A DNA stretch of 64,000 nucleotides from the NCBI GenBank assembly GCA_000165345.1, contig CM000436.1, positions 128,001 through 192,000 on the forward strand, in the 5' to 3' direction. Below are positions 37,295 through 64,000 of this stretch, in pieces (within the stretch, counting starts at the first letter, position 1; every line of letters starts with the position of its first letter). The position numbers and the translations under genes were made by a program. The notes below the pieces were generated by a model. The model did no database searches. It was given only the letters and a program-made list of their open reading frames with translations, and had not been told where the DNA came from.

Positions 37295-40200
37295 TTATGA
37301 TCTTAAGTTTTGTGTACAATAATTAACCAAAGCTACTAAGGCAGCTACTACTTTCTCCATGTTACTGATATTTTTCTGATTAACTTGAGAGGACTTGCAT
37401 ATAAAACAATTATTACACATTCCTCCACTAATGCTACTCACTTTTTGATTTGTAACTAAACATTTTCCAGATCCTCTTACAAATTTATCTAATGATTTTA
37501 AATTGGTTAAATCTGCTTCTGAAGCTTTAAGTAAGAGTTTCATAAGTTCTAAAACTTCTCTTTTGCAACCATCTTTGATTGAGAGTGAGTATTTTTCGAT
37601 GGTTTTTATAGAGATTTTTGATACATCCAAATTTTTTGTATCTAATGTTCCATTTGAATTAAACCTTAATTGGACTTGTTGGCCACCTGACGAAGTAGAT
37701 ATTTGTGGCTTTGGCTGTGGGTATGACGGTGGTTTTTGATATGGTGGTGGTATTTGTGGCTTTGATGGTGGGTATGACGGTGGCTTTTGGTATGGTGGTG
37801 GTATTTGTGGCTTTGGCTGTGGGTATGATGGTGGTTTTTGGTATGGTGGTGGTATTTGTGGCTTCGGTTGTGGGTATGACGGTGGCTTTTGATATGGCGG
37901 TGGCATTTGTGGCTTTGATGGTGGGTATGACGGTGGTTTTTGTGCTAATGGATCATCCGAAGGCATTAATCCTAAATTTGATTTTCCGATACCATCTTCC
38001 AGCAATCTGATTAGTTCTGACTTACTATGATTTACAGAATCAAATAATTCTTGTAAATTTTTAGTATCACCGCTCAAAGAAATATATTCTAAGTATTTTC
38101 CATAAACCTCTTTATCATTTGTCAAGTCTTCAACAGCTGATCTTTTTTTTCTTTTGATTTTAGTTCCCGGCAAAATAGGTACTTTTGGTCTAACAGCAGG
38201 ATCTGGCATTCCGTTTTTTTTTGTTGATACGCCAAATGAAGATGGTATGTTTTTAATAGAAGCTGGTGTTTTTCTCTTCTTTTCCCTTGATTCTTGATGA
38301 TTCTTTGCAATGGCTTCTTCCAAAGCTTCCAAAAGAGCTTCCTTACTATCATTTCCAGTCATTTGTATGAAATCAGCCAAATTTAAAGGTGAATCAGAAG
38401 ATGAGACTGTCCCTACATATTCTAAATACTTTTCTGTAACTTTCTCATCAACTTGCATGTAGTCGTATCCGGAACCAACGCCCCAGCCTCCCTCAGCTCC
38501 TCCGACTGCACCTCCCTCAGCTCCTCCAGTTGCACCTCCCTCAGCTCCTCCGACTGCACCTCCCTCAGCTCCTCCGACTGCACCTCCCCCAGCTCCTCCG
38601 ACTGCACCTCCCTCAGCTCCTCCGACTACACCTCCCTCAGCTCCTCCAGTTGCACCTCCCCCAGCTCCTCCACTCGCTCCAGCTCCTCCACCTACTCCTG
38701 CTCCTCCACCTACTCCTGCTCCTCCACTTGCACCTCCCTCAGCTCCACCACCTGCTAAACTTTGGCTATATTCACCCAGCATACTTAATAAAGCAGCTTT
38801 GTCATAGCCTGAAGCCTTAATCAACTCTTCCAAACTTAAAGAATTTCCTTGTACAATAGACATGTATGCAGCATAAGCCATTAAAACTTCTTCATCACTT
38901 TTAAGCGTACTAAGTAAATCTATTCCAACTTCTGCTCCTTCACCACCTCCACCTCCACCTCCACTAGCTGTGCTAAATAAATTTTGGATAAGCTCACGCA
39001 TTAAATTTAATAAGTAATCCTTATCATAATTTGAAATTTTAATCAAATATTTCAAATCTAAAGGATTTTCTACAGAAGAAGAATATAAATTATAAGTTTC
39101 TATAATTGCTTTATCTGCTAAGAAAACTTCAGCTAAATCAAGAACTTGTTCAGCTTTATCTTCTCGTTTCTTTTGTTCAGAAGGATCAACTGTTGATTGA
39201 GTTTCATTTTTTAAGTTTTGGATAAATATTTTTAAATAATCAACTATGCCATATTTTTCTTCCTTAGCTAAACCCTTAATCTCTTCCAAACTTAAAGCCG
39301 GCTCATCCTTAGTTAAACTTAAATAAACTCCATATAAATTCATTACTTCTTCATCATCTTCATTTGTTCCTTCTCCTCCTCCTGTTACTGCTACACCTCC
39401 TTCTATTCCGCCTGCTGATACAGGCTCATCATGTTGATAATTTTTATCTAAACTATGCTTGAAAAATTGTTTCATTTTACTATTAAACTGATCAATTTCA
39501 TCTTTAGTCACTTCCATACTTGATATAAGATTTCCTAAAGCACCTAAAATACGATTGTACAAACTATAATTAACATATTTTAGTTTGATAAATTCCTTGC
39601 ATATATCAAATAATATTTTACTTCTACGAATTGCTGCTTTATGTACCAAAATTTCTTTCTTTAAAATTTTATCTTCTTTTAGCTTATTAATAGCTTTGTT
39701 CTTCAGTTTTTCTTTTAAGCTAATTAATTTATTCCATTGTTCTCTTAAAGTACTTTCTATTTGTGTTAGATTCAAATCATTACAAATAAATGGAAAATTT
39801 CCCAAATCAAGTAATGATGGATGTATTAACTTTTTAATTGACAATTCTTCTCCAGAAAGATCAGAAATATGTTCCCAAGACGATCTATATTTATTCTTTT
39901 CTTTACAATTTTTCAAAAGATCATTTAATCTTTCCAAAATATCTAAAAATATATTTGAAAGTAAATTTTTTTTTAATATGCTTTCTCTGTAACAATAACT
40001 TTTATTATTTGCTCTGCCAATAGAAGAATTTAATCTAACCAATAATTCCGAAATTGTTGAAATTCTTCGATGAATTAGTAATATCAACTCTGAATTACAT
40101 CCTTCTAAATATTTTACTGCATATTCCACTTCCTTTGGTAATAAAAGTGACTTTAATTCTAGAGCTAAAGATTGAATATTTCTGTTTAAATCGCATCTTA

Positions 40201-43270: not shown

Positions 43271-43952
43271 AATTAAAGATTTAATCTATGATTGCTATTA
43301 TTTTTTTCTTATCTTGTGTAAACTTAACTTGTATAATCCTTTATTTTACATACTAAATTATGTTCTGAAATATCCTATATTTAATTTAAAATAATGTAAC
43401 AAAAATTGACCAAGATCCGATTAAAATATCTTTCTTTGAATAGGAATAAACTGTTGTTGTTATTATTATTAAACCCCCGAGAAAAAAAAAAGATGAATAA
43501 ATGATTTTTTATTCCGAGCTACCCTCTTATAATATATATTGCTATATGTAAATATCTAACTAAAATTATTGAATTGATTTTTCATTTGGTGAAAAATTGA
43601 ATAACCCCAATTATAACAATAATTCTGTTACTTTAATTTAAAAAGTAGTACTGGTAACTAGAGATTAAAAAATAAACCATATATACCAGTAAAAAAAAGA
43701 AAACCCCATATAAATATAAAGCTTATTATATATATACGTAAAATTTTGATCGATATTATTCAATATTTATTTTTTAAAAAAAAAAAGAAATGAAGAAACT
43801 ATTTTGTTTTTGTACTTGTTATAATATTTAAAATATTCTCAAATAATAATCTTATATTATTTCTTCTCCCTTTAAATTTGACATGGAAAAAGGCTTTTTG
43901 TTTTTTCCTTTACTATTATTTTGAGATTCATAATTTTAGGATTACGCAATCA

Positions 43953-44188
43953 AACTTAGGCGGCACATTTCAAGATATAATATATTACATGTAATTTAAT
44001 CTTTAAATTACCCCACAATTTGAAAATAAAACTTTTAGAACTTCCCGCCACTTGGATATATTTAATTAATTTAGAAAATACTTTTAAGTCAATAAGTGAT
44101 TTTAGATTGGTTGATACTGCATATTTTTTGTTTTTTCTTTTTCTGTTTTAAAATAATAATAATAGTTATTATTATTATTATTATTTTA
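43953..44188. promoter_or_regulatory. conserved intergenic module of about 235 bp, located 690–920 bp upstream of member A. It is near-identical to 63003–63235 upstream of member C and carries two GC-box elements (cttaggcggcacatttc and cttcccgccacttgg).
   Basis: Direct comparison of the two copies gives, for example, acttttaagtcaataagtgattttagattggttgatactgcatattttttgtttttt against acttttaagtcaataagtgattttagattgattgatactgcatgttttttgtttttt. The flanking N-domain coding sequence is only about 50% identical at the protein level. Confidence 0.45.
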
Positions 44189-45255
44189 ATATTGTAAAAA
44201 ATAAAGAACATACTTTATTGAAAGGCCCAAACAAGATTTATATATATAGATATATTGGAACCACTTAATTTATTATTAATCAATGAGACAAAATCAGATA
44301 AGACAAGATCCAGATCAAAATATTATCTTTCATTCTTTCTTTGTTTTTTTTTAAAACTAGAAAAAAAAATTTATTATTAAATATCTAAAAGTAATAATAT
44401 ATTTATTATTGTCTTGAATTGCGTTCAATTAATATTATTTTATTATTTGTATTATTCACATATATATATTATATTCAAAATATGCATTTTAATGCAAAGA
44501 GAATATATAATATGCAATTTGTCATAATTAGTGGTAATAGTAAATAAATGGTAATAATAAATAAAATATTTAAGTTTACTTAATATTAAATTTTTATCTA
44601 TTTCTATTACTTAAAGTCTATATTTCATAAAAGTAAAGAAAACAAAATTAAAGAAAAAAAAAAAAAAAAAAGAGAAGAGAATCTCGAGTTTTTCCTCCTC
44701 TTTCATTTCTTTCTCTTTTTTTCCTTCATAATTTTATTTTTCGTTTTGTTAAGAAAAAAAAGTAAACACTTTACTATTTCTTAAGCAAATTAATATCAAA
44801 ATAAATCTATTTTCTTCTCATTATTATTATATATTACTGAGATAAGAATATTGAAATTAAATAGTATAAATCCATTTTTATAAATAATTCAAGTATAATT
44901 TTTTTTTTTTTAATAAATAGATTTTTGGCCTGATTCCAAGATTTCAAAATAAACATGTACAATTTATCGTATACAATATTAATGCATGCACGTTATAGAA
45001 GGAAAAAAATGGAAACAGCCCGCCTTTCCCACATGCTTTTGAAAAAAAAAAAAAATCATACTGTAAAAATAAAGAAATTCCATTCTCTCTTTTAATATTT
45101 GAATTTCATTGAAATATTAAAGTTACTTGATTAGTTTAACGAATTGAACAATTTTGACTTTTTTCTTTTTTTAAACTTTTTTTCATTCTAAAATTACTCT
45201 TCTCTTTAAAAAAAAAAATAAATATATAGATCGTAATCAAATAGAATTTAGTATA

Positions 45256-48200
45256 TTATCTTGAGTTTTTTTTACAATATTCAACCAAAACTTCCAATGC
45301 AGCTACTATTTTCTCCATATTTCTGACATTTCTATTATTAACTCTAGAGGAGTTACATACAAAACAATTATTGCATGTTCCTCCACTTCCTGACCTTTGA
45401 TCTGTATTTAAACATCTTGCTGATCCTTTTAAAAATCGTTCCAATGACTTTAAATTATTTAAATCTGCTATTGAAACTTTGAGTAAATGTAATAAAAGAT
45501 TTAAAGTAGCATTTGAACAACCACTTCTAACTGAATTTGAATGTTTTTCAATGGTTTTTGTGGAAATACTTGATGTATCTAAATTAGTTTTATCTAATGT
45601 TCCATTAGGATTAAACTTTAATTGAACTTTGTGCGAACCAATGATTGAAGTCGGTATTTGTGATGGTTGTGATGGTTGTGACGGTTGTGGATATGCTGGT
45701 GGTTGAGGATATGCCGGTGGTTGTGATGGTTGTGGGTACCTTGGTGGCTGCGGATATGCCGGTGGTTGTGATGGTTGTGGGTACCTTGGTGGTTGCGGAT
45801 ATGGAGGCGGCTTTGATGGCTGTGGATATGCTGGTGGTTGAGGATATGCTGGTGGCTGTGATGGTTTTGAAGTTGATCGTGGTGGACGTGGCTTCGGCTG
45901 TGATGGACCAAATGAAGATAATATATCATTGATAGAGGAAGGCGCTGGTTTTCTTTTTGGTATTTCTGTTCTTGAAGCTTGATTATTCGTTTCAATAGCT
46001 TGTTGTAAAATTTGTAAAAGAGTTTCTTTATTTTGATTTCCTGGCATATCTATGAAATCAATCAAATCTAAAGGAGTATTTGGAGGCACTACTGATCTTA
46101 CATAATCTAAATAGTATTTCAATACAACTTCATCATTTAATAAGAGCCTGCTTTCATCATCCAAAGCTTCTCCTCCTTCTGCTCCTCCACTTGCTCCTGC
46201 TCCTCCACTTGCTCCTGCTCCCCCACCTGCTCCTGCTCCTCCACCTGCTCCTGCTCCTCCACCTGCTCCGCCTCCATAAACATTCCCTGTAGAATTTGTA
46301 TTATATTCACTTAAAATATCCAATAAAGTATTTTTATCGTAACCTGCAACTTCAATTAATTCTTTCAAACTCAAGGATTGTTTTACCATAGAAACATACA
46401 AAGCATAAGCTTCTAATACTTGTTCATCTGACATAAGAGCATTAATTAAACTTGATGCACTTGTTCCTTCTTCACCTTCATTATCATTTCTTCCTGGTGT
46501 TTCTCCATTTGTGTTATTATTTTGTGAAGTTTTGATAAATTCAATCATTAAAGATAATAAGTAACTTTTATCGTAACTTGAAAGTTCGATCAAATCTTCT
46601 AAATTTGAAGGATTCTCAACAACGGAAGAATATAAAGCATAAGTTTCCAAAACTTGTTGGTCATTTATTATAGATGAAACGATGTTATTAGTTGATTGAA
46701 CCCCATTTTTTAAGCTTTGAACAATATTTTTTAAATATTCAGATAAACTTTGCCCTTCTGCTGAAGCTAATTCCTTGATACTATTCAAACTTAAAGGCGC
46801 TTCACCAGTAGCTAAACTCAAATAAAATGCATATAAGTTTTGTATTTCTTCATCTTCATCAAGATTTTCTTCCTCCCCTGCTCCTCCACTTCCGCCTCCA
46901 CCTCCACTTCCGCCTCCACTTCCACTTCCGCCTCCACTTCCACCTCCACCAGCTCCTCCACTTCCACCTCCGCCTGCTCCTCCACCTCCGCCTGCTCCTC
47001 CACCTCCGCCTGCTCCTCCACCTCCACTTCCTCCTCCCGGCGTATATTCATCCAGATCTAACTTAAATAATCGCCTTATTTTATCATTAAGCTTATTAAC
47101 TTCAACGTTAGTTACTTTCATACTTGAATGAATATCTTTTAAAGCAGTTGAAACTTTATTAAATAAACTATTATTAACATATTGTAATTGCACAAATTCT
47201 TTACAAGCTTCAAGTAGTAATTTATTTCTTCTAACTGCTGCTTTATATATCAAAGTTTGTGTTTTTAAACTTTTAATATCTTTACTTTTGCTTACAATAC
47301 CCTTACTTTTAAGATTTTCTTTTAGATTTAATGTTTTATCCCATAATTTTTTTAAATAAATTTCTGCTTTTGGTAAATTTGAATCAACACAAGTAAATGG
47401 AAATCTTGCTAGTTTATTAAATGGTGGATATATTAAACTTTTAATTGAAGATTCTTCTCCCAAAAGACTAGTAATATGTTTCCAAGGCAATTTATATTTA
47501 TTCATTTCTTTACATTTATCTAAAATAGCATTTAATTTTCCCAAAATATCTAAAAATATATTTGAAAGTAAATTCCTCTTTAGTAAAGTTTCTTTGTAAC
47601 AAATACTTTTAGTATGTTTTATACTTGCACCATCAGAAGAACTTAATCTATTTATTAATTCCATTACTGTTGAAATTCTTTGATTTATAAGCAATAATAA
47701 TCCTAAATCACATCCTTGTAAATATCTTATTGCATATTCAACTTTTTTTGGTAATAACATTGATTTTAATTTCTCTGTCAAAGTTTGAATACTTCCTTCA
47801 AAATCACATCTCAAAATTACTGATAAATCCAAATTGTTCAAAATTTCAGATTCTGCATCAACTCCTTGAATTGTTACATCTATTGGATAATTTTGTGGAT
47901 CCTCTTCATTCTCATCATTTCCTATTCCAGACCCACCCGGTCTTTCTGGCCAACCTCCTCCACCACCACCTGCTCCACCGCTTGACCCTGGTAGTCCACT
48001 CCCTCCTGATTGACTTGGCATTTCTGGTTGAGTTGGTATTCCTGGTTGAGTTGGTATTCCTGGTTGAGTACCTGGAAATGCTGGAGCTCCTGGTCGAGTT
48101 GGCTTTCCACCAAATCCTTGAGCCCCTGGTAATACTGGCACTCCCCCAGGCACAGCAATAGGCTTTGATGCTTCTTGCCCACCTGGTCCGCTTGGAACTC

Positions 48201-48714
48201 CTGGTTTTGTTGTTCCTCCTGGCATTGCTGGTCCACTTGTTCCTCCTGGCATTCCTGGCCAACTTGGAACTACTGGTTTTGCTGGTCCACTTGGTCCTCC
48301 TGGTGTTGCTGGTCCTCCTGGCATTGCTGGTCCACTTGGTCCTCCTGGTATTCCTGGTCCTCCTGGTGTTCCTGGTCCTCCTGGTATTCCTGGTCCTCCC
48401 AGAACTCCTAAAATCAAATCTCCCGACGAACTAAATATTTCTGTAAAATCATTTGAATCTGAAAATAAATCAAAACCATATAATTGTTGTTCTGGTAATA
48501 TACCATTCTCCAATGGAAATGGAGGAAAAACAAATTCCATCAATTTTGGGAATAAATTCCAATTCATTGTCAAAAAATGTGGTTCTCCTTTATTTTCTAA
48601 TGAATTATATAATGTTAAAATTCCAAATCTAAAGCAATATTTTATTAATCCATGATAAACCTTACTTAAAGTTGATATTAAACTCATTTCATTCATACTT
48701 TGTTTATCTTTCAA
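45256..48714 (-). CDS. family member B of the same giant secreted modular repeat protein family; the 5' end is incomplete and continues into low-quality sequence and the gap
   Basis: The track ORF of 1152 aa stops at TAA 45256–45258. It shares domain order and many blocks with member A: the central domain ([32 protein letters not shown]..), the helical motifs, and the C-terminal 4-Cys domain (..[60 protein letters not shown]). Its repeat units differ from A: [12 protein letters not shown] runs, [11 protein letters not shown] 11-mers, and an N-terminal Gly-X-Pro tract. Upstream of 48714 the frame continues with A-like sequence (..NLRSRETSNDIFGG.. compared with ..ILEVRTISGLNVEKNNISS..) but is broken by n calls. 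The true start is therefore not in readable sequence. Confidence 0.55.
45650..45870. repeat. coding minisatellite with a 33-bp unit (ggttgtgatggttgtgggtaccttggtggctgcggatatgccggt type), encoding [11 protein letters not shown]-type 11-mers in member B
   Basis: The tandem reiteration is visible in the sequence. Confidence 0.75.
46170..47045. repeat. Gly/Ala/Ser-rich coding microsatellite blocks in member B (46170–46275 gctcctgctcctccacctgct units; 46880–47040 ccgcctccacttccacctcc units), separated by unique helical-motif coding sequence
   Basis: This is read directly. The units encode GGAGGGG and [12 protein letters not shown] runs. Confidence 0.7.
47930..48415. repeat. cctggt-based imperfect repeats encoding a Gly-X-Pro and (Ser/Ala)-X-Pro triplet tract ([42 protein letters not shown]...) near the readable N-terminus of member B
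   Basis: The tract consists of reiterated cctggtcctcctggt(a/g)ttcctggt units, with Pro at every third residue over about 45 codons. Confidence 0.7.
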
Positions 48715-49980
48715 ATTTTTTATTTCCTCTTTTCTTTCTTGAATTTTNTCCANTNNTGTACTGTAAATTCTTCAAAAATCTTCTTCTGNACATATATTTT
48801 GGNNCTATCTTCTCTTTTATTAAATAATTTTNTAAAACATTATCAATATGTATTATGTATTATTACTACTACTACCACCAAAAATATCATTACTTGTTTC
48901 TCTTGATCTTAAATTTAATTCATTCAACACTTCATTATTAATATTCAAATTTGAACTTTCTTTTGTTATNATTTTNTGAAATTGTTGTACGGAAAATCTC
49001 CTCTTTTAAAGGGTCATATGCTGATATTTGTCCNAAACCNTTATAATATTCAATTNTTCTCACACAACCNAATATTCCTGATGCANGAATAATCTANAGC
49101 TAAACTAANTCCAATCAATNNCTGATATTAATGTATAATAATTACAATTATTACNACNCTCTTNNATATNCCATCATGNAANGTGACTTGNNNTTCTCAT
49201 TCATACTTGAAACTGAATTTACATNCATTNATTCATNAAATNTACTTTCAAATNCTTGNCAATGNTGNNNCTATATGTTAATGNCTTAATAATTGATAAT
49301 TANNATAATNACNAGNTAATAAATGTCCAAATAAATTAATACCTGATGTNAAATCATAAANCATNTTATTTGATNTNTGTGATNCTAGAGATAAACCTTG
49401 TAATACAAATCTTGAAAAATNTTGTANTGAANGTAANATACTTTTGTGTCCAATATATATTTCATTAAATATTGTAATAGNCNTTTNCACATCTTTTAAT
49501 ANTATCTNGCTAANNATAATNATAAAGCTTCAATTATTANTAAAGTTCTNTACTGCTTCTTTTTTGNNATAGAATATTCACTTGAAACAANTTCTGGTGA
49601 TTNGAANTCCATAAAAGTATCCAATGNCTTACGTTTTTTTATTCTATCCCTTATTNATGNNAAAGANTNTATATGAGATTTTAATANNGATATATTAATA
49701 CTTGTACACATCGGGTAAACCTGCTAAATTTATTGCAAGATGATTTATTAGTGTATCTAANAATNTGGACAGATATGTATTCATTGTGTTGAATAATCAT
49801 ATTAATTCATCTGATANCAAATTATTNGNCCNTAAANGATCTTTCATGAAAGCCTTATCATAATCTGTTCTACGTTATTTTCAAACTGGACCATTTGNAC
49901 TAAATCATGNCCANTATTAAAGATTAGTAANNATTATCATCATCGNAGNCATTTTGAANAACCCANCCCCANCTGNCCCT

Positions 49981-52900: not shown

Positions 52901-55900
52901 NNNNNNNNNNNNNNNNNNNNNNNNNNNNNNNNNNNNNNNNNNNNNNNNNNNNNNNNNNNNNNNNNNNNNNNNNNNNNNNNNNNNNNNNNNNNNNNNNNNN
53001 NNNNNNNNNNNNNNNNNNNNNNNNNNNNNNNNNNNNNNNNNNNNNNNNNNNNNNNNNNNNNNNNNNNNNNNNNNNNNNNNNNNNNNNNNNNNNNNNNNNN
53101 NNNNNNNNNNNNNNNNNNNNNNNNNNNNNNNNNNNNNNNNNNNNNNNNNNNNNNNNNNNNNNNNNNNNNNNNNNNNNNNNNNNNNNNNNNNNNNNNNNNN
53201 NNNNNNNNNNNNNNNNNNNNNNNNNNNNNNNNNNNNNNNNNNNNNNNNNNNNNNNNNNNNNNNNNNNNNNNNNNNNNNNNNNNNNNNNNNNNNNNNNNNN
53301 NNNNNNNNNNNNNNNNNNNNNNNNNNNNNNNNNNNNNNNNNNNNNNNNNNNNNNNNNNNNNNNNNNNNNNNNNNNNNNNNNNNNNNNNNNNNNNNNNNNN
53401 NNNNNNNNNNNNNNNNNNNNNNNNNNNNNNNNNNNNNNNNNNNNNNNNNNNNNNNNNNNNNNNNNNNNNNNNNNNNNNNNNNNNNNNNNNNNNNNNNNNN
53501 NNNNNNNNNNNNNNNNNNNNNNNNNNNNNNNNNNNNNNNNNNNNNNNNNNNNNNNNNNNNNNNNNNNNNNNNNNNNNNNNNNNNNNNNNNNNNNNNNNNN
53601 NNNNNNNNNNNNNNNNNNNNNNNNNNNNNNNNNNNNNNNNNNNNNNNNNNNNNNNNNNNNNNNNNNNNNNNNNNNNNNNNNNNNNNNNNNNNNNNNNNNN
53701 NNNNNNNNNNNNNNNNNNNNNNNNNNNNNNNNNNNNNNNNNNNNNNNNNNNNNNNNNNNNNNNNNNNNNNNNNNNNNNNNNNNNNNNNNNNNNNNNNNNN
53801 NNNNNNNNNNNNNNNNNNNNNNNNNNNNNNNNNNNNNNNNNNNNNNNNNNNNNNNNNNNNNNNNNNNNNNNNNNNNNNNNNNNNNNNNNNNNNNNNNNNN
53901 NNNNNNNNNNNNNNNNNNNNNNNNNNNNNNNNNNNNNNNNNNNNNNNNNNNNNNNNNNNNNNNNNNNNNNNNNNNNNNNNNNNNNNNNNNNNNNNNNNNN
54001 NNNNNNNNNNNNNNNNNNNNNNNNNNNNNNNNNNNNNNNNNNNNNNNNNNNNNNNNNNNNNNNNNNNNNNNNNNNNNNNNNNNNNNNNNNNNNNNNNNNN
54101 NNNNNNNNNNNNNNNNNNNNNNNNNNNNNNNNNNNNNNNNNNNNNNNNNNNNNNNNNNNNNNNNNNNNNNNNNNNNNNNNNNNNNNNNNNNNNNNNNNNN
54201 NNNNNNNNNNNNNNNNNNNNNNNNNNNNNNNNNNNNNNNNNNNNNNNNNNNNNNNNNNNNNNNNNNNNNNNNNNNNNNNNNNNNNNNNNNNNNNNNNNNN
54301 NNNNNNNNNNNNNNNNNNNNNNNNNNNNNNNNNNNNNNNNNNNNNNNNNNNNNNNNNNNNNNNNNNNNNNNNNNNNNNNNNNNNNNNNNNNNNNNNNNNN
54401 NNNNNNNNNNNNNNNNNNNNNNNNNNNNNNNNNNNNNNNNNNNNNNNNNNNNNNNNNNNNNNNNNNNNNNNNNNNNNNNNNNNNNNNNNNNNNNNNNNNN
54501 NNNNNNNNNNNNNNNNNNNNNNNNNNNNNNNNNNNNNNNNNNNNNNNNNNNNNNNNNNNNNNNNNNNNNNNNNNNNNNNNNNNNNNNNNNNNNNNNNNNN
54601 NNNNNNNNNNNNNNNNNNNNNNNNNNNNNNNNNNNNNNNNNNNNNNNNNNNNNNNNNNNNNNNNNNNNNNNNNNNNNNNNNNNNNNNNNNNNNNNNNNNN
54701 NNNNNNNNNNNNNNNNNNNNNNNNNNNNNNNNNNNNNNNNNNNNNNNNNNNNNNNNNNNNNNNNNNNNNNNNNNNNNNNNNNNNNNNNNNNNNNNNNNNN
54801 NNNNNNNNNNNNNNNNNNNNNNNNNNNNNNNNNNNNNNNNNNNNNNNNNNNNNNNNNNNNNNNNNNNNNNNNNNNNNNNNNNNNNNNNNNNNNNNNNNNN
54901 NNNNNNNNNNNNNNNNNNNNNNNNNNNNNNNNNNNNNNNNNNNNNNNNNNNNNNNNNNNNNNNNNNNNNNNNNNNNNNNNNNNNNNNNNNNNNNNNNNNN
55001 NNNNNNNNNNNNNNNNNNNNNNNNNNNNNNNNNNNNNNNNNNNNNNNNNNNNNNNNNNNNNNNNNNNNNNNNNNNNNNNNNNNNNNNNNNNNNNNNNNNN
55101 NNNNNNNNNNNNNNNNNNNNNNNNNNNNNNNNNNNNNNNNNNNNNNNNNNNNNNNNNNNNNNNNNNNNNNNNNNNNNNNNNNNNNNNNNNNNNNNNNNNN
55201 NNNNNNNNNNNNNNNNNNNNNNNNNNNNNNNNNNNNNNNNNNNNNNNNNNNNNNNNNNNNNNNNNNNNNNNNNNNNNNNNNNNNNNNNNNNNNNNNNNNN
55301 NNNNNNNNNNNNNNNNNNNNNNNNNNNNNNNNNNNNNNNNNNNNNNNNNNNNNNNNNNNNNNNNNNNNNNNNNNNNNNNNNNNNNNNNNNNNNNNNNNNN
55401 NNNNNNNNNNNNNNNNNNNNNNNNNNNNNNNNNNNNNNNNNNNNNNNNNNNNNNNNNNNNNNNNNNNNNNNNNNNNNNNNNNNNNNNNNNNNNNNNNNNN
55501 NNNNNNNNNNNNNNNNNNNNNNNNNNNNNNNNNNNNNNNNNNNNNNNNNNNNNNNNNNNNNNNNNNNNNNNNNNNNNNNNNNNNNNNNNNNNNNNNNNNN
55601 NNNNNNNNNNNNNNNNNNNNNNNNNNNNNNNNNNNNNNNNNNNNNNNNNNNNNNNNNNNNNNNNNNNNNNNNNNNNNNNNNNNNNNNNNNNNNNNNNNNN
55701 NNNNNNNNNNNNNNNNNNNNNNNNNNNNNNNNNNNNNNNNNNNNNNNNNNNNNNNNNNNNNNNNNNNNNNNNNNNNNNNNNNNNNNNNNNNNNNNNNNNN
55801 NNNNNNNNNNNNNNNNNNNNNNNNNNNNNNNNNNNNNNNNNNNNNNNNNNNNNNNNNNNNNNNNNNNNNNNNNNNNNNNNNNNNNNNNNNNNNNNNNNNN

Positions 55901-58900
55901 NNNNNNNNNNNNNNNNNNNNNNNNNNNNNNNNNNNNNNNNNNNNNNNNNNNNNNNNNNNNNNNNNNNNNNNNNNNNNNNNNNNNNNNNNNNNNNNNNNNN
56001 NNNNNNNNNNNNNNNNNNNNNNNNNNNNNNNNNNNNNNNNNNNNNNNNNNNNNNNNNNNNNNNNNNNNNNNNNNNNNNNNNNNNNNNNNNNNNNNNNNNN
56101 NNNNNNNNNNNNNNNNNNNNNNNNNNNNNNNNNNNNNNNNNNNNNNNNNNNNNNNNNNNNNNNNNNNNNNNNNNNNNNNNNNNNNNNNNNNNNNNNNNNN
56201 NNNNNNNNNNNNNNNNNNNNNNNNNNNNNNNNNNNNNNNNNNNNNNNNNNNNNNNNNNNNNNNNNNNNNNNNNNNNNNNNNNNNNNNNNNNNNNNNNNNN
56301 NNNNNNNNNNNNNNNNNNNNNNNNNNNNNNNNNNNNNNNNNNNNNNNNNNNNNNNNNNNNNNNNNNNNNNNNNNNNNNNNNNNNNNNNNNNNNNNNNNNN
56401 NNNNNNNNNNNNNNNNNNNNNNNNNNNNNNNNNNNNNNNNNNNNNNNNNNNNNNNNNNNNNNNNNNNNNNNNNNNNNNNNNNNNNNNNNNNNNNNNNNNN
56501 NNNNNNNNNNNNNNNNNNNNNNNNNNNNNNNNNNNNNNNNNNNNNNNNNNNNNNNNNNNNNNNNNNNNNNNNNNNNNNNNNNNNNNNNNNNNNNNNNNNN
56601 NNNNNNNNNNNNNNNNNNNNNNNNNNNNNNNNNNNNNNNNNNNNNNNNNNNNNNNNNNNNNNNNNNNNNNNNNNNNNNNNNNNNNNNNNNNNNNNNNNNN
56701 NNNNNNNNNNNNNNNNNNNNNNNNNNNNNNNNNNNNNNNNNNNNNNNNNNNNNNNNNNNNNNNNNNNNNNNNNNNNNNNNNNNNNNNNNNNNNNNNNNNN
56801 NNNNNNNNNNNNNNNNNNNNNNNNNNNNNNNNNNNNNNNNNNNNNNNNNNNNNNNNNNNNNNNNNNNNNNNNNNNNNNNNNNNNNNNNNNNNNNNNNNNN
56901 NNNNNNNNNNNNNNNNNNNNNNNNNNNNNNNNNNNNNNNNNNNNNNNNNNNNNNNNNNNNNNNNNNNNNNNNNNNNNNNNNNNNNNNNNNNNNNNNNNNN
57001 NNNNNNNNNNNNNNNNNNNNNNNNNNNNNNNNNNNNNNNNNNNNNNNNNNNNNNNNNNNNNNNNNNNNNNNNNNNNNNNNNNNNNNNNNNNNNNNNNNNN
57101 NNNNNNNNNNNNNNNNNNNNNNNNNNNNNNNNNNNNNNNNNNNNNNNNNNNNNNNNNNNNNNNNNNNNNNNNNNNNNNNNNNNNNNNNNNNNNNNNNNNN
57201 NNNNNNNNNNNNNNNNNNNNNNNNNNNNNNNNNNNNNNNNNNNNNNNNNNNNNNNNNNNNNNNNNNNNNNNNNNNNNNNNNNNNNNNNNNNNNNNNNNNN
57301 NNNNNNNNNNNNNNNNNNNNNNNNNNNNNNNNNNNNNNNNNNNNNNNNNNNNNNNNNNNNNNNNNNNNNNNNNNNNNNNNNNNNNNNNNNNNNNNNNNNN
57401 NNNNNNNNNNNNNNNNNNNNNNNNNNNNNNNNNNNNNNNNNNNNNNNNNNNNNNNNNNNNNNNNNNNNNNNNNNNNNNNNNNNNNNNNNNNNNNNNNNNN
57501 NNNNNNNNNNNNNNNNNNNNNNNNNNNNNNNNNNNNNNNNNNNNNNNNNNNNNNNNNNNNNNNNNNNNNNNNNNNNNNNNNNNNNNNNNNNNNNNNNNNN
57601 NNNNNNNNNNNNNNNNNNNNNNNNNNNNNNNNNNNNNNNNNNNNNNNNNNNNNNNNNNNNNNNNNNNNNNNNNNNNNNNNNNNNNNNNNNNNNNNNNNNN
57701 NNNNNNNNNNNNNNNNNNNNNNNNNNNNNNNNNNNNNNNNNNNNNNNNNNNNNNNNNNNNNNNNNNNNNNNNNNNNNNNNNNNNNNNNNNNNNNNNNNNN
57801 NNNNNNNNNNNNNNNNNNNNNNNNNNNNNNNNNNNNNNNNNNNNNNNNNNNNNNNNNNNNNNNNNNNNNNNNNNNNNNNNNNNNNNNNNNNNNNNNNNNN
57901 NNNNNNNNNNNNNNNNNNNNNNNNNNNNNNNNNNNNNNNNNNNNNNNNNNNNNNNNNNNNNNNNNNNNNNNNNNNNNNNNNNNNNNNNNNNNNNNNNNNN
58001 NNNNNNNNNNNNNNNNNNNNNNNNNNNNNNNNNNNNNNNNNNNNNNNNNNNNNNNNNNNNNNNNNNNNNNNNNNNNNNNNNNNNNNNNNNNNNNNNNNNN
58101 NNNNNNNNNNNNNNNNNNNNNNNNNNNNNNNNNNNNNNNNNNNNNNNNNNNNNNNNNNNNNNNNNNNNNNNNNNNNNNNNNNNNNNNNNNNNNNNNNNNN
58201 NNNNNNNNNNNNNNNNNNNNNNNNNNNNNNNNNNNNNNNNNNNNNNNNNNNNNNNNNNNNNNNNNNNNNNNNNNNNNNNNNNNNNNNNNNNNNNNNNNNN
58301 NNNNNNNNNNNNNNNNNNNNNNNNNNNNNNNNNNNNNNNNNNNNNNNNNNNNNNNNNNNNNNNNNNNNNNNNNNNNNNNNNNNNNNNNNNNNNNNNNNNN
58401 NNNNNNNNNNNNNNNNNNNNNNNNNNNNNNNNNNNNNNNNNNNNNNNNNNNNNNNNNNNNNNNNNNNNNNNNNNNNNNNNNNNNNNNNNNNNNNNNNNNN
58501 NNNNNNNNNNNNNNNNNNNNNNNNNNNNNNNNNNNNNNNNNNNNNNNNNNNNNNNNNNNNNNNNNNNNNNNNNNNNNNNNNNNNNNNNNNNNNNNNNNNN
58601 NNNNNNNNNNNNNNNNNNNNNNNNNNNNNNNNNNNNNNNNNNNNNNNNNNNNNNNNNNNNNNNNNNNNNNNNNNNNNNNNNNNNNNNNNNNNNNNNNNNN
58701 NNNNNNNNNNNNNNNNNNNNNNNNNNNNNNNNNNNNNNNNNNNNNNNNNNNNNNNNNNNNNNNNNNNNNNNNNNNNNNNNNNNNNNNNNNNNNNNNNNNN
58801 NNNNNNNNNNNNNNNNNNNNNNNNNNNNNNNNNNNNNNNNNNNNNNNNNNNNNNNNNNNNNNNNNNNNNNNNNNNNNNNNNNNNNNNNNNNNNNNNNNNN

Positions 58901-59983
58901 NNNNNNNNNNNNNNNNNNNNNNNNNNNNNNNNNNNNNNNNNNNNNNNNNNNNNNNNNNNNNNNNNNNNNNNNNNNNNNNNNNNNNNNNNNNNNNNNNNNN
59001 NNNNNNNNNNNNNNNNNNNNNNNNNNNNNNNNNNNNNNNNNNNNNNNNNNNNNNNNNNNNNNNNNNNNNNNNNNNNNNNNNNNNNNNNNNNNNNNNNNNN
59101 NNNNNNNNNNNNNNNNNNNNNNNNNNNNNNNNNNNNNNNNNNNNNNNNNNNNNNNNNNNNNNNNNNNNNNNNNNNNNNNNNNNNNNNNNNNNNNNNNNNN
59201 NNNNNNNNNNNNNNNNNNNNNNNNNNNNNNNNNNNNNNNNNNNNNNNNNNNNNNNNNNNNNNNNNNNNNNNNNNNNNNNNNNNNNNNNNNNNNNNNNNNN
59301 NNNNNNNNNNNNNNNNNNNNNNNNNNNNNNNNNNNNNNNNNNNNNNNNNNNNNNNNNNNNNNNNNNNNNNNNNNNNNNNNNNNNNNNNNNNNNNNNNNNN
59401 NNNNNNNNNNNNNNNNNNNNNNNNNNNNNNNNNNNNNNNNNNNNNNNNNNNNNNNNNNNNNNNNNNNNNNNNNNNNNNNNNNNNNNNNNNNNNNNNNNNN
59501 NNNNNNNNNNNNNNNNNNNNNNNNNNNNNNNNNNNNNNNNNNNNNNNNNNNNNNNNNNNNNNNNNNNNNNNNNNNNNNNNNNNNNNNNNNNNNNNNNNNN
59601 NNNNNNNNNNNNNNNNNNNNNNNNNNNNNNNNNNNNNNNNNNNNNNNNNNNNNNNNNNNNNNNNNNNNNNNNNNNNNNNNNNNNNNNNNNNNNNNNNNNN
59701 NNNNNNNNNNNNNNNNNNNNNNNNNNNNNNNNNNNNNNNNNNNNNNNNNNNNNNNNNNNNNNNNNNNNNNNNNNNNNNNNNNNNNNNNNNNNNNNNNNNN
59801 NNNNNNNNNNNNNNNNNNNNNNNNNNNNNNNNNNNNNNNNNNNNNNNNNNNNNNNNNNNNNNNNNNNNNNNNNNNNNNNNNNNNNNNNNNNNNNNNNNNN
59901 NNNNNNNNNNNNNNNNNNNNNNNNNNNNNNNNNNNNNNNNNNNNNNNNNNNNNNNNNNNNNNNNNNNNNNNNNNNNNNNNNNN
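49981..59983. other. assembly gap: a run of exactly 10,000 N (49984–59983). It is preceded by about 1.3 kb riddled with single n calls (48748–49980) and followed by about 100 bp of atypical composition (59984–60084).
   Basis: This is read directly from the sequence. A 10,000-N run is a conventional placeholder of unknown true length. Confidence 0.95.
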
Positions 59984-60302
59984 ATAAACTCGACCTAACA
60001 ACATATACCCCNAAGGTCCGTGAAAGCCATAACCTTAATGTAGGTACCCTTTCCAAGGTAACCTGGAATACTTTGGAATCATAATTTAATTAGTAATTCC
60101 CCCAAAATAAAACTATTTGTTAATATCTGGAGTTAACTTAACTAAATCATCTTGATAAAATGAAGAAATTAATCCCATTGGTTAATTGATATAAAGATAA
60201 ATCTTTTAAATCTGATTTATTACTTTTATCATCCAATAATTTTATTAAATCTAATATTGGATCCAATTTTAATCTTGATTCACAATCTGTTCATATCTCT
60301 GT

Positions 60303-62249
60303 TCAATTCTGTTTTAATAAATTTGCTATATAAGTTTGATCATCATTTTTTCCATGATTTTTCTTATAAAATCTTCTACCATTCTCTAAAATTAAATCTA
60401 ATTGTAAATGTCTATAATATAATAATGATAATAAAGTTTGATTACATGTTTTTTGTTTTGTACTATTAATCAATTTTAAATCATTACTTATTAATTGATT
60501 AAGTGAATCTTTATCAGTTGATTTAATCTTAGTCTTAAATTGTTTAGATGTTATTGTTATTTCTTTTGTTTTAATCATATGCATTGTTAAAATACTCATT
60601 AATTTATTTAATTGGAATTTTAATTCTGAACATTTTAATATATATTGATTTCTTGTTTCAATCTTTGTTATATTTTTTATTTTATTTAATATATATCTAT
60701 ATATCTTTAAAAAATCTAAAATCTTTTCTAATATAACTAAAATCATATTCATACTAAGATTATTTGCAAGATTGATTTGATTTGATGATGAAAACCATAT
60801 AATAAAGTCATTAAATGATAATGAATCAATAGCTTTTGTATAATATTCTTGTGGAAATCTTGAAACAATAGGAAATAAAAATTCATCAAAATCAAGATTT
60901 AAATCTTCATTATTTACAGTAAATCTTAATTCAACACATTTTTTATATATAAATTGTAATAATGGCCAAATTTGATTATGTATTGCTTTAAATTTATTAT
61001 ATACATCTTTATCCATATTAATTTCTGTTGAAGAAATTTTTAATTGTTGATTAAAATTATCTAATAATCTCTTTATTGTTATATTATTAAATTGTTTAGA
61101 TAGATCTAATTCTTTTCTTAACATTAAAAAATTCTCTGATTCACATATTGTTGGTAATGATGATGATATAAAATTATTAGTTTTAAGATCATATAAACAA
61201 AGCGTTTGTAAAACTTGAGTATATAAGATTGATCTATTTAATATATTTAAAGTATTTTTTAAAATATTAATTCTTGTTTCTAAATATTGATCATTTTTTC
61301 CAGCAGAAGTTAAATTATCTTTCTCTGTTTGTAAATGATTTAAACTTGAAGTATTTTTCTCATAATGTGATTTTAAAGTTTTTTGTATTTTTTCAATTTT
61401 AATTTGGAATAAATCATCCAAACATTTTTTAAAATCAAATTGGATTAAATTTTCTAATACTTGTGAAATTATAATTAATAATTTATGTGTAAATAAAATA
61501 AGACTTTTTGGTTGAAAATAACTGATTACCAAAGTTTGAAAATCCATTTCTCTTTGTTTTTGAGATTGAATATATAGATTATGTTTATTATAAGTTAATA
61601 TACCAGAATTAACAGCATCTAATAATCTTTTATTTCTTCGTATTTCTCTTTCATGAGCTTTATCTTTACGTCTTTTTTGTAAATCAGCTTTTTCTTGTAA
61701 TGTTTTACCTTGATAATGAGTTGTGAAAGGTCTATACATAACTTCTTTTTCAACTTGTTCTCCTTTAAGAATACTTTTTCTATATTTACATTTATCAAGT
61801 TTAAGTTGATATGTAACAATTTTTGAAGCAAGTTCTTTCATTTTTAATTGTAATCTTTTAATAGCATTAGCTCTTTTTTCACATGTATTACATCTATTAC
61901 CTTTTTGTTTTTTAGTTCCTTCTTGTTGGCATTGATGTTTATCATAATTTTCTCGAATAGATTTAGAATTTGCTTTAAATTTATTGAATTCAGTTGTTAA
62001 TGTTTCAATTTCTGATTCTAATTGAGATATTAAATTTTCTATTTGAGATAATGGAACACTACTTAGAATCCAATGTGTAATTTCACTATTTATTGTTAAT
62101 TTAGGATTTTTGGTAAATCCTGGAAAATTTAGATAAGATGATTCAATAATGTTATTTAATTTATTATGAAGGAAAATTGAATTCTTTTCATTATTTACCA
62201 ATAATCCAATTAACAATAAAACTGTAAAATGTATCCATTTATTCATCAT
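60303..62249 (-). CDS. family member C (5' portion); an uninterrupted N-domain plus the start of the helical domain. The 3' portion is frameshifted near the contig edge and runs into the 10-kb gap.
   Basis: ATG is at 62247–62249, and the signal peptide is MMNKWIHFTVLLLIGLLVN. The first 230 aa are about 45–55% identical to A's N-terminal piece. The protein then continues in frame into the helical domain (VISYFQPKSLILFTHKLL..; A has VISYFQPKTLILFTDKLL..). Downstream of 60303, A-like coding continues in shifted frames (..YQLT / MGLISSFYQDDLVKLTPDINK..) until the N run begins at 59984. Confidence 0.55.
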   Translation of the reverse strand: MMNKWIHFTVLLLIGLLVNNEKNSIFLHNKLNNIIESSYLNFPGFTKNPKLTINSEITHWILSSVPLSQIENLISQLESEIETLTTEFNKFKANSKSIRENYDKHQCQQEGTKKQKGNRCNTCEKRANAIKRLQLKMKELASKIVTYQLKLDKCKYRKSILKGEQVEKEVMYRPFTTHYQGKTLQEKADLQKRRKDKAHEREIRRNKRLLDAVNSGILTYNKHNLYIQSQKQREMDFQTLVISYFQPKSLILFTHKLLIIISQVLENLIQFDFKKCLDDLFQIKIEKIQKTLKSHYEKNTSSLNHLQTEKDNLTSAGKNDQYLETRINILKNTLNILNRSILYTQVLQTLCLYDLKTNNFISSSLPTICESENFLMLRKELDLSKQFNNITIKRLLDNFNQQLKISSTEINMDKDVYNKFKAIHNQIWPLLQFIYKKCVELRFTVNNEDLNLDFDEFLFPIVSRFPQEYYTKAIDSLSFNDFIIWFSSSNQINLANNLSMNMILVILEKILDFLKIYRYILNKIKNITKIETRNQYILKCSELKFQLNKLMSILTMHMIKTKEITITSKQFKTKIKSTDKDSLNQLISNDLKLINSTKQKTCNQTLLSLLYYRHLQLDLILENGRRFYKKNHGKNDDQTYIANLLKQN

Positions 62250-63002
62250 TCAATTATTTGATAAATTATCCTCCTTTTCTCTCTTTTTTTTTATATATAT
62301 AATATACCCCAATATCTTTATTTTGATAGGAAGGAGGGGGGAAAAAAATTCACCTTCCCTAATTTATCGGTTAACTTGTAGATATTATAACAAAAATTTA
62401 CAAAATATTCTCCAATTTAAATGATCTCTCTTTAAATACTATTGGATTATTATGATGATTCTTCTATTACGAAAAGAAAATGGAATATATTATTGCAAGC
62501 TATTCTTTCTTTATTTCCTTCTTTCTTTATTTCTTTCTGTTTCTCTCTATCTCTCTCTTCTGAGTATTATATATAAATACAATTAATATTATTTAGTTTA
62601 CTTCTTACTTTATGAAAAACTTAATATTATTTATAGAAATTCTGTTACTTCAATTTCAAGGTCTCAGTAACGGAAATTATTTATTTTTTTAAAGAAAAAA
62701 AAAATTAAACCATATATTTTAGGAAAAAAAACCCCATATAAATATAAAGTTGATTATATTAAGATGTGAAATTTTGATAGATATTCAATATATAATGACT
62801 TTTATTTAAAAATTATTTTAAAAAAAAAAAAAAAAAATGAGACTTTCTGCTCTTATTTTTGTATTATTATTTAAAATATAAACCAATTTATTTCATATTG
62901 TTTGTTTCACTGTTAAATTTGAGTAAAAAAAAGATGTATGATTTCTTATTCTTATTCTTCTCTTATTATTAACAGAAATCACAACTTCAGGATTTCATAT
63001 CA

Positions 63003-63235
63003 AAACTTGAGCGCCATATTTCTAGATATATTACATGTTAATTAAATCTTTAAATTACCCCACAAATAAGAAATTAAATTTCAAGGAACTTCCCGCCACT
63101 TTGACATATTTAATTAATTTATAAAATACTTTTAAGTCAATAAGTGATTTTAGATTGATTGATACTGCATGTTTTTTGTTTTTTTTTTCTGTTTTAAAAT
63201 AATAATAATAATAATAATAGTTATTATTATTATTG
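63003..63235. promoter_or_regulatory. second copy of the conserved intergenic module, upstream of member C and immediately 3' of member D; GC-boxes cttgagcgccatatttc and cttcccgccactttg
   Basis: See the 43953–44188 feature. A second, shorter conserved block (aaaccccatataaatataaag...aaattttgat.gatatt) lies at 62729–62795, matching 43700–43765. Confidence 0.45.
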
Positions 63236-63360
63236 TTAATGTTATAAATGTTAGTTTTGTGTTGTTATATATTTTCTATTATCTCATTTCTCATTTTCAA
63301 CTTTATTTCTTATTTTTCTTCATTTCCCATTTCTCTTTGTTTTCCTATTTCAGCTCAAAT

Positions 63361-64000
63361 TTAATTTTCTTCTAGAAAACCAAGTAACATTTGAATCAAA
63401 AGTTCTTTATCAAATCCTGAAGATTCGATCAATTGTTTTAAAGTGAGTGGTTCTTCAATTAATGACAAATATAATGAATACAAATTTTGAACTTCTGGAT
63501 CTTTTAAAAAGGACGAGTAATCGTTATTTTCTTGATTTGATTGAGAACTAATATTACTTATTGGCTTTGACTGAATTATTGGTAAATTAGGTTCTTCAGT
63601 TCCCTCTGTATAAATATCAGACAATAATACAATAGACGGACTATTAAAGCCACTGGACTCACCATATGCAGGGGCAGGGGTAGGAGTAGGGGTATAGACA
63701 GCTCCAACACCAGCACCAACACCAGTACCAGCATCAGCACCAGTACCAGCATCAGCACCAGTACCAACACCAGAACCAGTACCAACACCAGAACCAGTAC
63801 CAACACCAGCACCAGAAGCTCCAAGAGAAAATACTTGAGAAATTCTTGAATTGAACTGGCTGATTTGAAGATCGCTAATGACTAAGGAACTAAATAAATT
63901 TTCTAAAACATCCAATATATCAATTGTAATGTGTGAATTTAGTTGAAAATAATTTAAAAATTCTTCACAAATGGCTGTTAATTGTTCATTTCTAGTTATT
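63361..64000 (-). CDS. family member D (partial; continues beyond the window end). It has a Gly/Thr/Ala/Val-rich repeat and one ESSGFDK helical motif, then stops.
   Basis: The minus-strand frame is open from the window edge (ITRNEQLTAICEEFLNYFQ..) to TAA at 63361–63363. It encodes (GAGVGTGSGVGTG..GADAGTGADAGTG) repeats and DPEVQNLYSLYLSLIEEPLTLKQLIESSGFDKELLIQMLLGFLEEN. That segment matches the LSLEELIKASGYDKAALLSML motif of members A and B. No family-like coding follows the stop. Confidence 0.4.
   Translation of the reverse strand, partial: ITRNEQLTAICEEFLNYFQLNSHITIDILDVLENLFSSLVISDLQISQFNSRISQVFSLGASGAGVGTGSGVGTGSGVGTGADAGTGADAGTGVGAGVGAVYTPTPTPAPAYGESSGFNSPSIVLLSDIYTEGTEEPNLPIIQSKPISNISSQSNQENNDYSSFLKDPEVQNLYSLYLSLIEEPLTLKQLIESSGFDKELLIQMLLGFLEEN

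Follow-up and report, generated by a model that had tools for sequence, protein, structure and literature searches.

What are the giant, repeat-rich genes that lie head to tail at the end of a stretch of Cryptosporidium parvum chromosome 8, how many of them are there, and what might their products do? The stretch in question is 64,000 nucleotides long (NCBI GenBank assembly GCA_000165345.1, contig CM000436.1, positions 128,001 to 192,000 of the forward strand) and is referred to here as the window. An earlier note, based on the letters of the sequence, had described positions 37,295 to 64,000 as a tandem, minus-strand family of giant modular proteins with at least four paralogous members, A, B, C and D. 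The tandem family is borne out, with tblastn E values that range from 0 to 3e-6. The count is not: B forms the 3' portion and C the 5' portion of a single gene, here called BC, and since they belong together, the array consists of three genes, A, BC and D. These are three paralogs built as a mosaic of common modules. One of them, A, carries an in-frame nonsense codon, and the family as a whole appears to be restricted, at least in its N-terminal region, to the genus Cryptosporidium.

The locus

The window belongs to chromosome 8 of C. parvum Iowa II in the 2004 assembly, and the array is the cgd8_660 to cgd8_700 locus. This follows from three matches. The open reading frame (ORF) of C (648 amino acids, aa) is 100% identical to the C. 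parvum entry "cpbgf_800690, partial"; the ORFs adjoining the array encode RPN1, RFC1, PSMD5, Ctf4/Mcl1 and two alpha/beta hydrolases, the gene set of chromosome 8; and the gap inside the array is the "~10 kb sequence gap" that has been described beside cgd8_680 and cgd8_690 in C. parvum Iowa II chromosome 8 (PMC4407392, PMC4637869). Gene A corresponds to cgd8_660 plus cgd8_670, B to cgd8_680, C to cgd8_690 and D to cgd8_700 (CpMuc8, or Muc20), and the 228-aa ORF of A is XP_625526/Q5CPV3/CPATCC_003868. The merged names cgd8_660_670 and cgd8_680_690 have been used by two later comparative-genomics papers. The array has the Ctf4/RPL23a genes on one side and the myosin gene cgd8_710 on the other, in sequence of about 30% G+C with long, intron-poor and densely packed ORFs.

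Two gapless assemblies served for comparison within C. parvum: the BGF telomere-to-telomere assembly CP141125.1 (fetched as L001 and L003) and IOWA-ATCC, CP044415.1 (L002 and L004). Positions given with an L number are those of the fetched locus. L005 is the locus in the C. tyzzeri assembly PYHZ01000008.1, a draft with frameshifts and Ns, and L006 is the locus from GCA_014529505.1. All three C. parvum assemblies that were compared (the window, BGF and IOWA-ATCC) come from the IOWA isolate.

Three genes in the array

With A as the tblastn query, C is matched at 56% identity over 698 aa (A residues 1-689; E=0), B at 45% over 411 aa (A residues 877-1276; E=1.6e-91) and again in a block that covers A residues 1575-1685, and D at 38% over a stretch of about 58 aa (E=3e-6). 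Judged from these alignments, the similarity of A, B, C and D is far beyond chance. The same search, across the whole window, found no match outside the B, C and D loci, in agreement with the earlier statement that no other gene in the window resembles the family.

Why do B and C count as one gene? In IOWA-ATCC, the ATG of C and the stop codon of B bound one and the same ORF of 3,227 codons, without interruption (L002 10001-19684). Window positions 60060-64000 align to L002 12191-8249, and positions 43002-49944 align to L002 21941-15023, with 98% identity for the B side. The sequence that is truly missing from the window (49945-60059) amounts to 2,831 bp, not 10 kb. It is entirely BC coding sequence, part of the M region described below, and no extra gene is hidden in it. 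The TGA at 60303-60305, at which C had been taken to end, is the product of an inserted G within the ~300 degraded bases with which the contig ends, and is followed by more indels, mismatches and Ns (window 60000-60420 against L002 11830-12260). Because the extra G stands at a degraded contig end and the gapless assembly keeps the frame open past this point, the TGA of C is a sequencing artefact. In C. meleagridis, a single gene, cmbei_800690, corresponds to both the cgd8_680 and the cgd8_690 models, and the two halves of BC were nearly equal in one proteomic enrichment (log2 2.21 and 2.25). The spacing of 1 to 2 kb ascribed to the members holds for A to B (1,985 bp) and for C to D (1,111 bp), all on the minus strand and head to tail, but the boundary between B and C lies inside one gene.

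The BGF assembly differs from IOWA-ATCC by one frameshift in BC and two in D, each a single-base deletion in an A5-A7 homopolymer (L001 5273, 5301 and 14036). These deletions break cgd8_700 and cgd8_680_690 into pieces in BGF, whereas both ORFs stay open in IOWA-ATCC; they are probably assembly errors. Another local difference is a cluster of eight A/C substitutions in BGF relative to L002, at L001 15185-15294.

Could the paralogs themselves be collapsed or duplicated copies of one gene, produced by misassembly at the gap? The 2004 assembly does have a placeholder gap and degraded contig ends at just this locus, and Isaza et al. called for verification of the region. On the other hand, A and BC differ at 39-45% of residues (their identity ranges from 55 to 61%), two independent long-read assemblies without gaps both show A, BC and D in this order, and A-type orthologs are found in C. 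tyzzeri and C. hominis. As an account of the locus, misassembly is hardly credible, and for the paralogy it is refuted; the artefacts are limited to the split between B and C and to the stop codon of C.

A mosaic of modules

A uniform, ordered set of modules had been assigned to all members of the array. It fits A and BC alone. In these two proteins a signal-like N-terminus is followed by an N-module with long predicted helices around a conserved NYDSHxC-x12-C-x2-C-EKRANAIKRL cluster, a helical domain (H1) of ~600 aa, a central domain of ~285 aa, helical motifs of ~45 aa with the pattern [DE]xxΦxxxYxxYxxxΦxxPΦxLxxΦI..., and a C-terminal domain of ~130 aa. The last has six Cys in A and BC, of which five are invariant in an alignment of six sequences, in place of the four that had been counted. 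BC has in addition a helical, Cys-bearing M region of ~1,100 aa (residues 1085-2178), which A lacks.

D departs from this plan. It is without H1 and without the C-terminal Cys domain, and it has a region of ~1,050 aa that is common to BC only. Against BC, it is 32-34% identical in the M region (E=5e-59 and 1e-40), 27% in the central domain (E=9e-26) and 27% in the N-module (E=4e-5), and one helical motif is also common to the two. At full length D has 1,910 codons (L002 3156-8888), arranged as a signal-like N-terminus, N-module, Thr/Ser/Pro mucin tract, M region, repeats, central domain, repeats and one motif.

The ~45-aa motifs, present in five copies in A, four in BC and one in D, are the sole true internal repeats of the conserved part. 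The large helical regions (H1, M and the central domain) were also considered as repeats of one "DC-x" helical module, an idea that was rejected, since hhalign among the module profiles, and among quarters of the M region, gave at most 13% probability. Cysteine is sparse throughout, at 24-45 residues per 2,000-3,200 aa. Across the genus, the conserved modules keep invariant Cys, Pro, Trp and Tyr columns.

Between the modules lie low-complexity tracts, which are tandem repeats at the DNA level with periods of 6, 12, 18, 24, 27, 30, 45, 48 and 51 bp, all multiples of three. The repeat units are unrelated between copies, as had been noted, and the Pro-rich units are wholly different between orthologs. 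Between BGF and IOWA-ATCC, the repeat lengths differ by indels of 6, 12 and 18 bp. The repeats of A and BC are Pro- and Gly-rich, with Thr merely scattered. In D, on the other hand, ~100 aa (residues 195-293, in L002 and outside the window) form a Thr/Ser/Pro tract that A and BC lack, and it is this tract that accounts for its annotation as a "possible mucin".

In a Kyte-Doolittle scan the N-termini are hydrophobic and signal-like; the signal peptide itself is putative, although it is also annotated for proteins of the locus in the literature. The scan gave no convincing internal transmembrane-like segment and no C-terminal segment resembling a glycosylphosphatidylinositol (GPI) signal. AlphaFold2 (AF2) models predict all-alpha modules with disordered repeats, at low confidence (mean pLDDT 59 and 45).

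Does the family reach beyond the genus?

When an HMMER profile of the N-terminal 820 positions was searched against 1.84 billion representative proteins, there were seven matches, all of them from Cryptosporidium, all with E<1e-30 and none weaker. At the sensitivity of HMMER, the N-terminal region is thus genus-restricted. None of these matches was a separate one attributable to C. muris or C. andersoni. This exhaustive search covers the N-terminal region; the central, motif and C-terminal modules were covered by Pfam and the PDB. No Pfam family passed the threshold in the window ORFs, full-length BC and D, the orthologs, the single motifs or the C-terminal domain. Profiles A1 and A3, the latter of the repeat-stripped C-terminal half, matched no PDB sequence, and Foldseek of the AF2 models against the PDB gave nothing below E=0.1. 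The database searches that had been proposed for the separate modules therefore bear out the view of an unplaced family, in that there is no Pfam, PDB sequence or fold match; but the genes as such were already annotated, as cgd8_660 to cgd8_700.

Some candidate relatives were rejected. The top Foldseek match for the N-terminal model was Plasmodium falciparum MSP1, at E=0.1 with a TM score of 0.11 and a root-mean-square deviation of 37 Å, which is not meaningful. A collagen-like protein would be expected to match the Pfam Collagen family, which is not matched at E<=1, and in the one tract of this kind Gly keeps to every third position for ~7 triplets only. For a formin, no FH2 or other Pfam family was found at E<=0.1 in full-length BC, and none passed the cut-off in any member.

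Origin of the three genes

How did three such genes come to lie side by side? In GCA_014529505.1, which represents another Cryptosporidium, one BC-type gene of 2,957 aa stands between the myosin gene and RPL23a, where C. parvum has D, BC and A. The C. canis proteins, of 2,810 and 2,844 aa, are also BC-type; those of C. bovis and C. xiaoi, at ~1,900 aa, are without the M region. In the N-terminal region, A is 61% identical to BC and 52% to the C. ubiquitum protein, and BC is 56% identical to the latter. Since A and BC are closer to each other than to C. ubiquitum, their duplication is later than the split from C. ubiquitum, and this closeness, together with the one-gene locus of GCA_014529505.1, points to a single ancestral gene. 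The copy number of A/BC has been reported to vary between species, most of the others having a single gene.

The ancestral form was thus almost certainly BC-type, ~3,000 aa long, with a signal peptide, a Cys-bearing coiled-coil N-module, H1, repeats, the helical M region, repeats, the central domain, ~45-aa motifs, repeats and the C-terminal Cys domain, in that order. It was duplicated in the C. parvum lineage, after which the copies lost different modules: BC (3,227 aa) kept them all, A lost the M region, and D lost H1 and the C-terminal domain. Taken jointly, the identity of the locus and this evolutionary account leave very little room for doubt. The duplication took in more than the coding sequence: over ~540 bp, the 5' flanks of A and BC show ~77% identity, so that a putative promoter or 5' untranslated region was copied along with the gene. 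The duplicated upstream regions may imply that A and BC are co-regulated.

The A-type ortholog of C. tyzzeri has 95% identity to A and that of C. hominis 92%; with BC, this C. hominis fragment has just 52% identity, and BC has been reported as absent from C. hominis through a 19-kb deletion. In C. tyzzeri (L005 3232-15040), D and an A-type copy alone are seen between myosin and RPL23a, with gene models fragmented by frameshifts and N runs. BC is apparently absent there, whether truly lost or collapsed in the draft.

A nonsense codon in A

A had been read as an uninterrupted ORF from 37295 to 43270. In fact an in-frame TAA interrupts it at codon 229 (42584-42586, minus strand), and the same codon stands in the window, in BGF (L003 10685-10687) and in IOWA-ATCC (L004 10685-10687). 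The equivalent codon is CAA (Gln) in the paralog BC and GAA (Glu) in the C. tyzzeri ortholog (L005 ~9713). Judging from this comparison, the TAA is a derived and genuine nonsense codon in the IOWA-derived assemblies. It splits A into a signal-bearing fragment of 228 aa and a remainder of 1,762 codons that has neither a signal sequence nor a further in-frame stop. As the TAA is aligned to Gln, a ciliate-type code was considered and rejected: of the 1,991 codons just one is of this kind, and A, B and D all end in a TAA. The stop may reflect a very recent pseudogenisation, or it may be tolerated or read through.

Seen beside the loss of BC in C. hominis and its apparent absence in C. tyzzeri, the nonsense codon in C. 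parvum A would amount to a reciprocal loss of partly redundant paralogs. From a protein-guided codon alignment, the ratio of non-synonymous to synonymous rates (dN/dS) of A against C. tyzzeri is 0.84, an estimate that rests on just 60 differences (46 of them non-synonymous, 14 synonymous); for Ctf4, a neighbour of the array, the ratio is 0.30. The value fits relaxed constraint and diversifying selection equally, and diversifying pressure is plausible.

What might the proteins do?

The functional picture that we favor is one in which the proteins would enter the secretory pathway, and invasive or early intracellular stages would release them. From their disulfide-bearing helical modules an extracellular scaffold would be built on the surface of the parasite or at its interface with the host, with the N-terminal coiled coil and its conserved Cys cluster as the chief scaffold-forming module, and the disordered Pro/Gly/Thr repeats would serve as glycosylated spacers that are exposed to antibodies and evolve fast. 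As regards expression, peptides of cgd8_680 and cgd8_690 are present in HCT-8 lysates 3 h after infection and are ~4.6-fold enriched with anti-DG8 serum. The gene IDs do not occur in the supplements of the MEDLE2 paper. In Bangladeshi children, protection from reinfection is associated with seven antibody specificities, one of which is directed at cgd8_700, the "potential mucin" CpMuc8 (PMC10425216).

Several points weigh against this picture. The enrichment with anti-DG8 serum is weak (6 and 14 peptide-spectrum matches, p=0.026 and 0.08), and comparable enrichment is seen for clear background proteins, among them ribosomal proteins and a myosin light chain; the pull-down therefore shows expression, not specific association. 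The mRNA of cgd8_680 is low in culture and in in-vivo samples. At least one member, A, may be non-functional in the IOWA isolate, and the BGF frameshifts in BC and D would count in the same direction if they were real. The literature within reach holds no localisation, knockout or glycosylation data for any member. Oligomerisation and a scaffold role are conjecture, the AF2 models being of low confidence. All told, secreted, disulfide-stabilised helical scaffolds with mucin-like linkers at the surface or interface are a possible function, put forward tentatively and with a clearly greater chance of being wrong than right. For the best explanation as a whole, a genus-restricted trio of giant secreted proteins with this function, the balance is even. 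One could go further and see the trio as a helical scaffold within a layered host-parasite interface, a dense-granule and small-granule complex around DG8 and SG4; reciprocal degeneration of the paralogs would then add to species differences in host range or antigenic profile, and CpMuc8 would be protective as an exposed member of the scaffold. So specific a proposal is a long shot.

What else could these proteins be? They are very large, repeat-rich and putatively secreted, with conserved Cys, as might also be expected of matrix glycoproteins made in female gametes or sporulating oocysts, where the Cys-bearing helical domains would be cross-linked into the oocyst wall and the mucin-like tracts would tether the sporozoites. 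Mucin-like tethers have been described in C. parvum oocysts, and the peptides found at 3 h could come from carried-over oocyst or sporozoite material. Yet the transcripts of cgd8_680 are not enriched in females, their level in in-vivo females lying ~2.5 log2 units below that of asexual stages; none of the five gene IDs turns up in the 8 supplementary files that accompany the 2025 paper on oocyst walls and the Cryptosporidium oocyst wall proteins (COWPs); and there are neither COWP-type Cys-rich repeats nor a Pfam match. A role in the oocyst wall or in tethering is therefore unlikely, and the suggestion that the family might belong to wall-forming stages is without support. An intracellular, cytoskeletal or formin-like protein is scarcely conceivable. 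The C. meleagridis ortholog is annotated as a formin in a table of PMC10888889, and the Pro-rich tracts do resemble an FH1 region, from which, we suspect, the name derives; but A, B, C, D, full-length BC and D, and the orthologs contain neither FH2 nor another Pfam domain, the N-terminus is signal-like, and the Pro-rich units differ wholly between orthologs.

A different kind of alternative is that the family is decaying and partly redundant, under relaxed constraint, and that only one BC- or A-type copy, together with D, would matter. Much of the evidence from the locus lends itself to this reading: the TAA in three IOWA-derived assemblies where C. tyzzeri has Glu, the deletion of BC from C. 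hominis, which keeps its A-type copy, the presence of D and an A-type copy only in C. tyzzeri, the higher dN/dS of A than of its neighbour, and the single gene of most other species. Against it, the 1,762 codons that follow the TAA have stayed free of stops in an AT-rich genome, which implies that the mutation is very recent or tolerated; the conserved modules are well kept across the genus; the BC protein has been detected; D elicits antibodies that correlate with protection; and the dN/dS value comes from few differences and a draft C. tyzzeri assembly. General decay is thus doubtful as the explanation of the trio, and the picture of secreted helical proteins at the surface or interface is the one retained here.

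Coordinates and other features of the window

The features of the array are collected in Table 1. The low-quality sequence that flanks the 10,000-N run, at 48748-49983, contains numerous single Ns, and isolated Ns inside the RPN1 ORF (16548-16576) are a further sign of uneven base quality. Two other ORFs may be mentioned. A large, uncharacterised one of 2,360 aa (5433-12515, plus strand) has no Pfam match and no tblastn match to A, and strong positive GC skew is seen at 10-14 kb. One of 825 aa (483-2960, minus strand) has a weak thrombospondin type-1 match (TSP1_spondin, E=2.6e-5, under the Pfam cut-off) and may be an adhesin with this domain.

Table 1. Position of the array genes, their modules and associated features in the window (residue numbers are those of A)
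Feature	Position	Strand	Basis
Gene A (cgd8_660_670), 1,991 codons, one in-frame TAA	37295..43270	-	ORFs, translation, module mapping
A, signal-like N-terminus, residues 1-19	43214-43270	-	module mapping
A, N-module with C-x12-C-x2-C, residues 20-232	42575-43213	-	module mapping
A, helical domain H1, residues 233-836	40763-42574	-	module mapping
A, Gly/Pro and KPTVPN repeats, residues 837-995	40286-40762	-	module mapping, tandem repeats
A, central domain, residues 996-1278	39437-40285	-	module mapping
A, five ~45-aa helical motifs with Gly-rich linkers, residues 1305-1763	37982-39358	-	module mapping
A, Pro-rich repeats, residues 1773-1861	37688-37954	-	tandem repeats
A, C-terminal Cys domain, residues 1862-1991	37298-37687	-	module mapping
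Conserved 5' region of A	43695..44198	-	alignment
B, 3' part of BC, from the end of the M region and Gly-X-Pro-like repeats	45256..49944	-	alignment to L002
B, central domain	~47035-47907	-	module mapping
B, Gly-rich tract	46872-47037	-	tandem repeats
B, four ~45-aa helical motifs	~45967-46863	-	module mapping
B, Pro-rich repeats	45673-45866	-	tandem repeats
B, C-terminal Cys domain	45259-45642	-	module mapping
Assembly placeholder, 10,000 N	49984..59983	n/a	exact N run
C, 5' part of BC: signal-like N-terminus, N-module, most of H1	60060..62249	-	alignment to L002
Conserved 5' region of BC, partner of 43695-44198	62724..63248	-	alignment
D, 3' end of cgd8_700: Gly/Thr/Ala-rich repeat (63699-63815), single ~45-aa motif, stop	63361..64000	-	module mapping, repeats

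Relation to known systems

How much of this was known? The published genes cgd8_660_670, cgd8_680_690 and cgd8_700 are the same genes as A, BC and D, with orthologs such as Chro.80081, cmbei_800690 and cubi_03292. It had been reported that cgd8_660 aligns at its 3' end with cgd8_680 and at its 5' end with cgd8_690 (PMC4407392, PMC4637869), and the paralogy of A and BC and its variation between species are published (PMC4407392, PMC4637869, PMC6532270, PMC7371110). The genes, this paralogy, the differences in copy number between species and the antigenicity of cgd8_700 are thus already known. In the literature reachable here, on the other hand, we did not find the membership of cgd8_700 in the same modular family, the BC-type ancestral architecture, the contrast between a nonsense A in C. 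parvum and an intact A with lost BC in C. hominis, or the content of the 2.8-kb gap; the accounts that we found treat cgd8_700 simply as a mucin, without a link to the 660/680 family. The nonsense mutation at codon 229 of A, the single 3,227-codon ORF of BC and the true size of the gap were worked out here from public assemblies.

The new points are useful to the specialist rather than surprising, and the kind of locus is unchanged by them. For genome scanning they hold a caution, as a gap and degraded contig ends made one 9.7-kb gene into two apparent paralogs with a false stop. The locus is one of the few differences in gene content between C. parvum and C. hominis, and it has relevance for vaccines through cgd8_700/CpMuc8, one of the seven antigens to which antibodies correlate with protection in children. 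The family membership of cgd8_700, the genus restriction, the lack of a match to a known fold and the nonsense codon in A lead to testable hypotheses on cross-reactive epitopes, redundancy and localisation.

How does the trio compare with known systems? Like the COWPs, its members are Cys-containing, found in Cryptosporidium only and, by prediction, secreted and structural, but COWPs are made of dense Cys-rich repeats and are female-specific, whereas in the trio Cys is sparse, the folds are helical and cgd8_680 is not female-enriched. With Plasmodium MSP1 the trio has in common that it is large, mainly alpha-helical, of apicomplexan origin, putatively secreted and exposed to antibodies, a resemblance of style only, since it is without a GPI signal and without EGF domains. 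The mucin-like glycoproteins of Cryptosporidium (gp900, gp40/15 = gp60, CpMuc1-7 and Muc25) resemble it in having a signal peptide, putative in the trio, and Thr/Ser/Pro-rich low-complexity tracts, in the trio that of D, in being polymorphic or fast-evolving and immunogenic, and in that antibodies to some of them correlate with protection. No sequence homology to them was detected, however: conserved, Cys-bearing domains of alpha-helical type, not mucin tracts, make up most of each protein of the trio, and where dense Ser/Thr tracts would be expected of a mucin, A and BC have Pro/Gly repeats.

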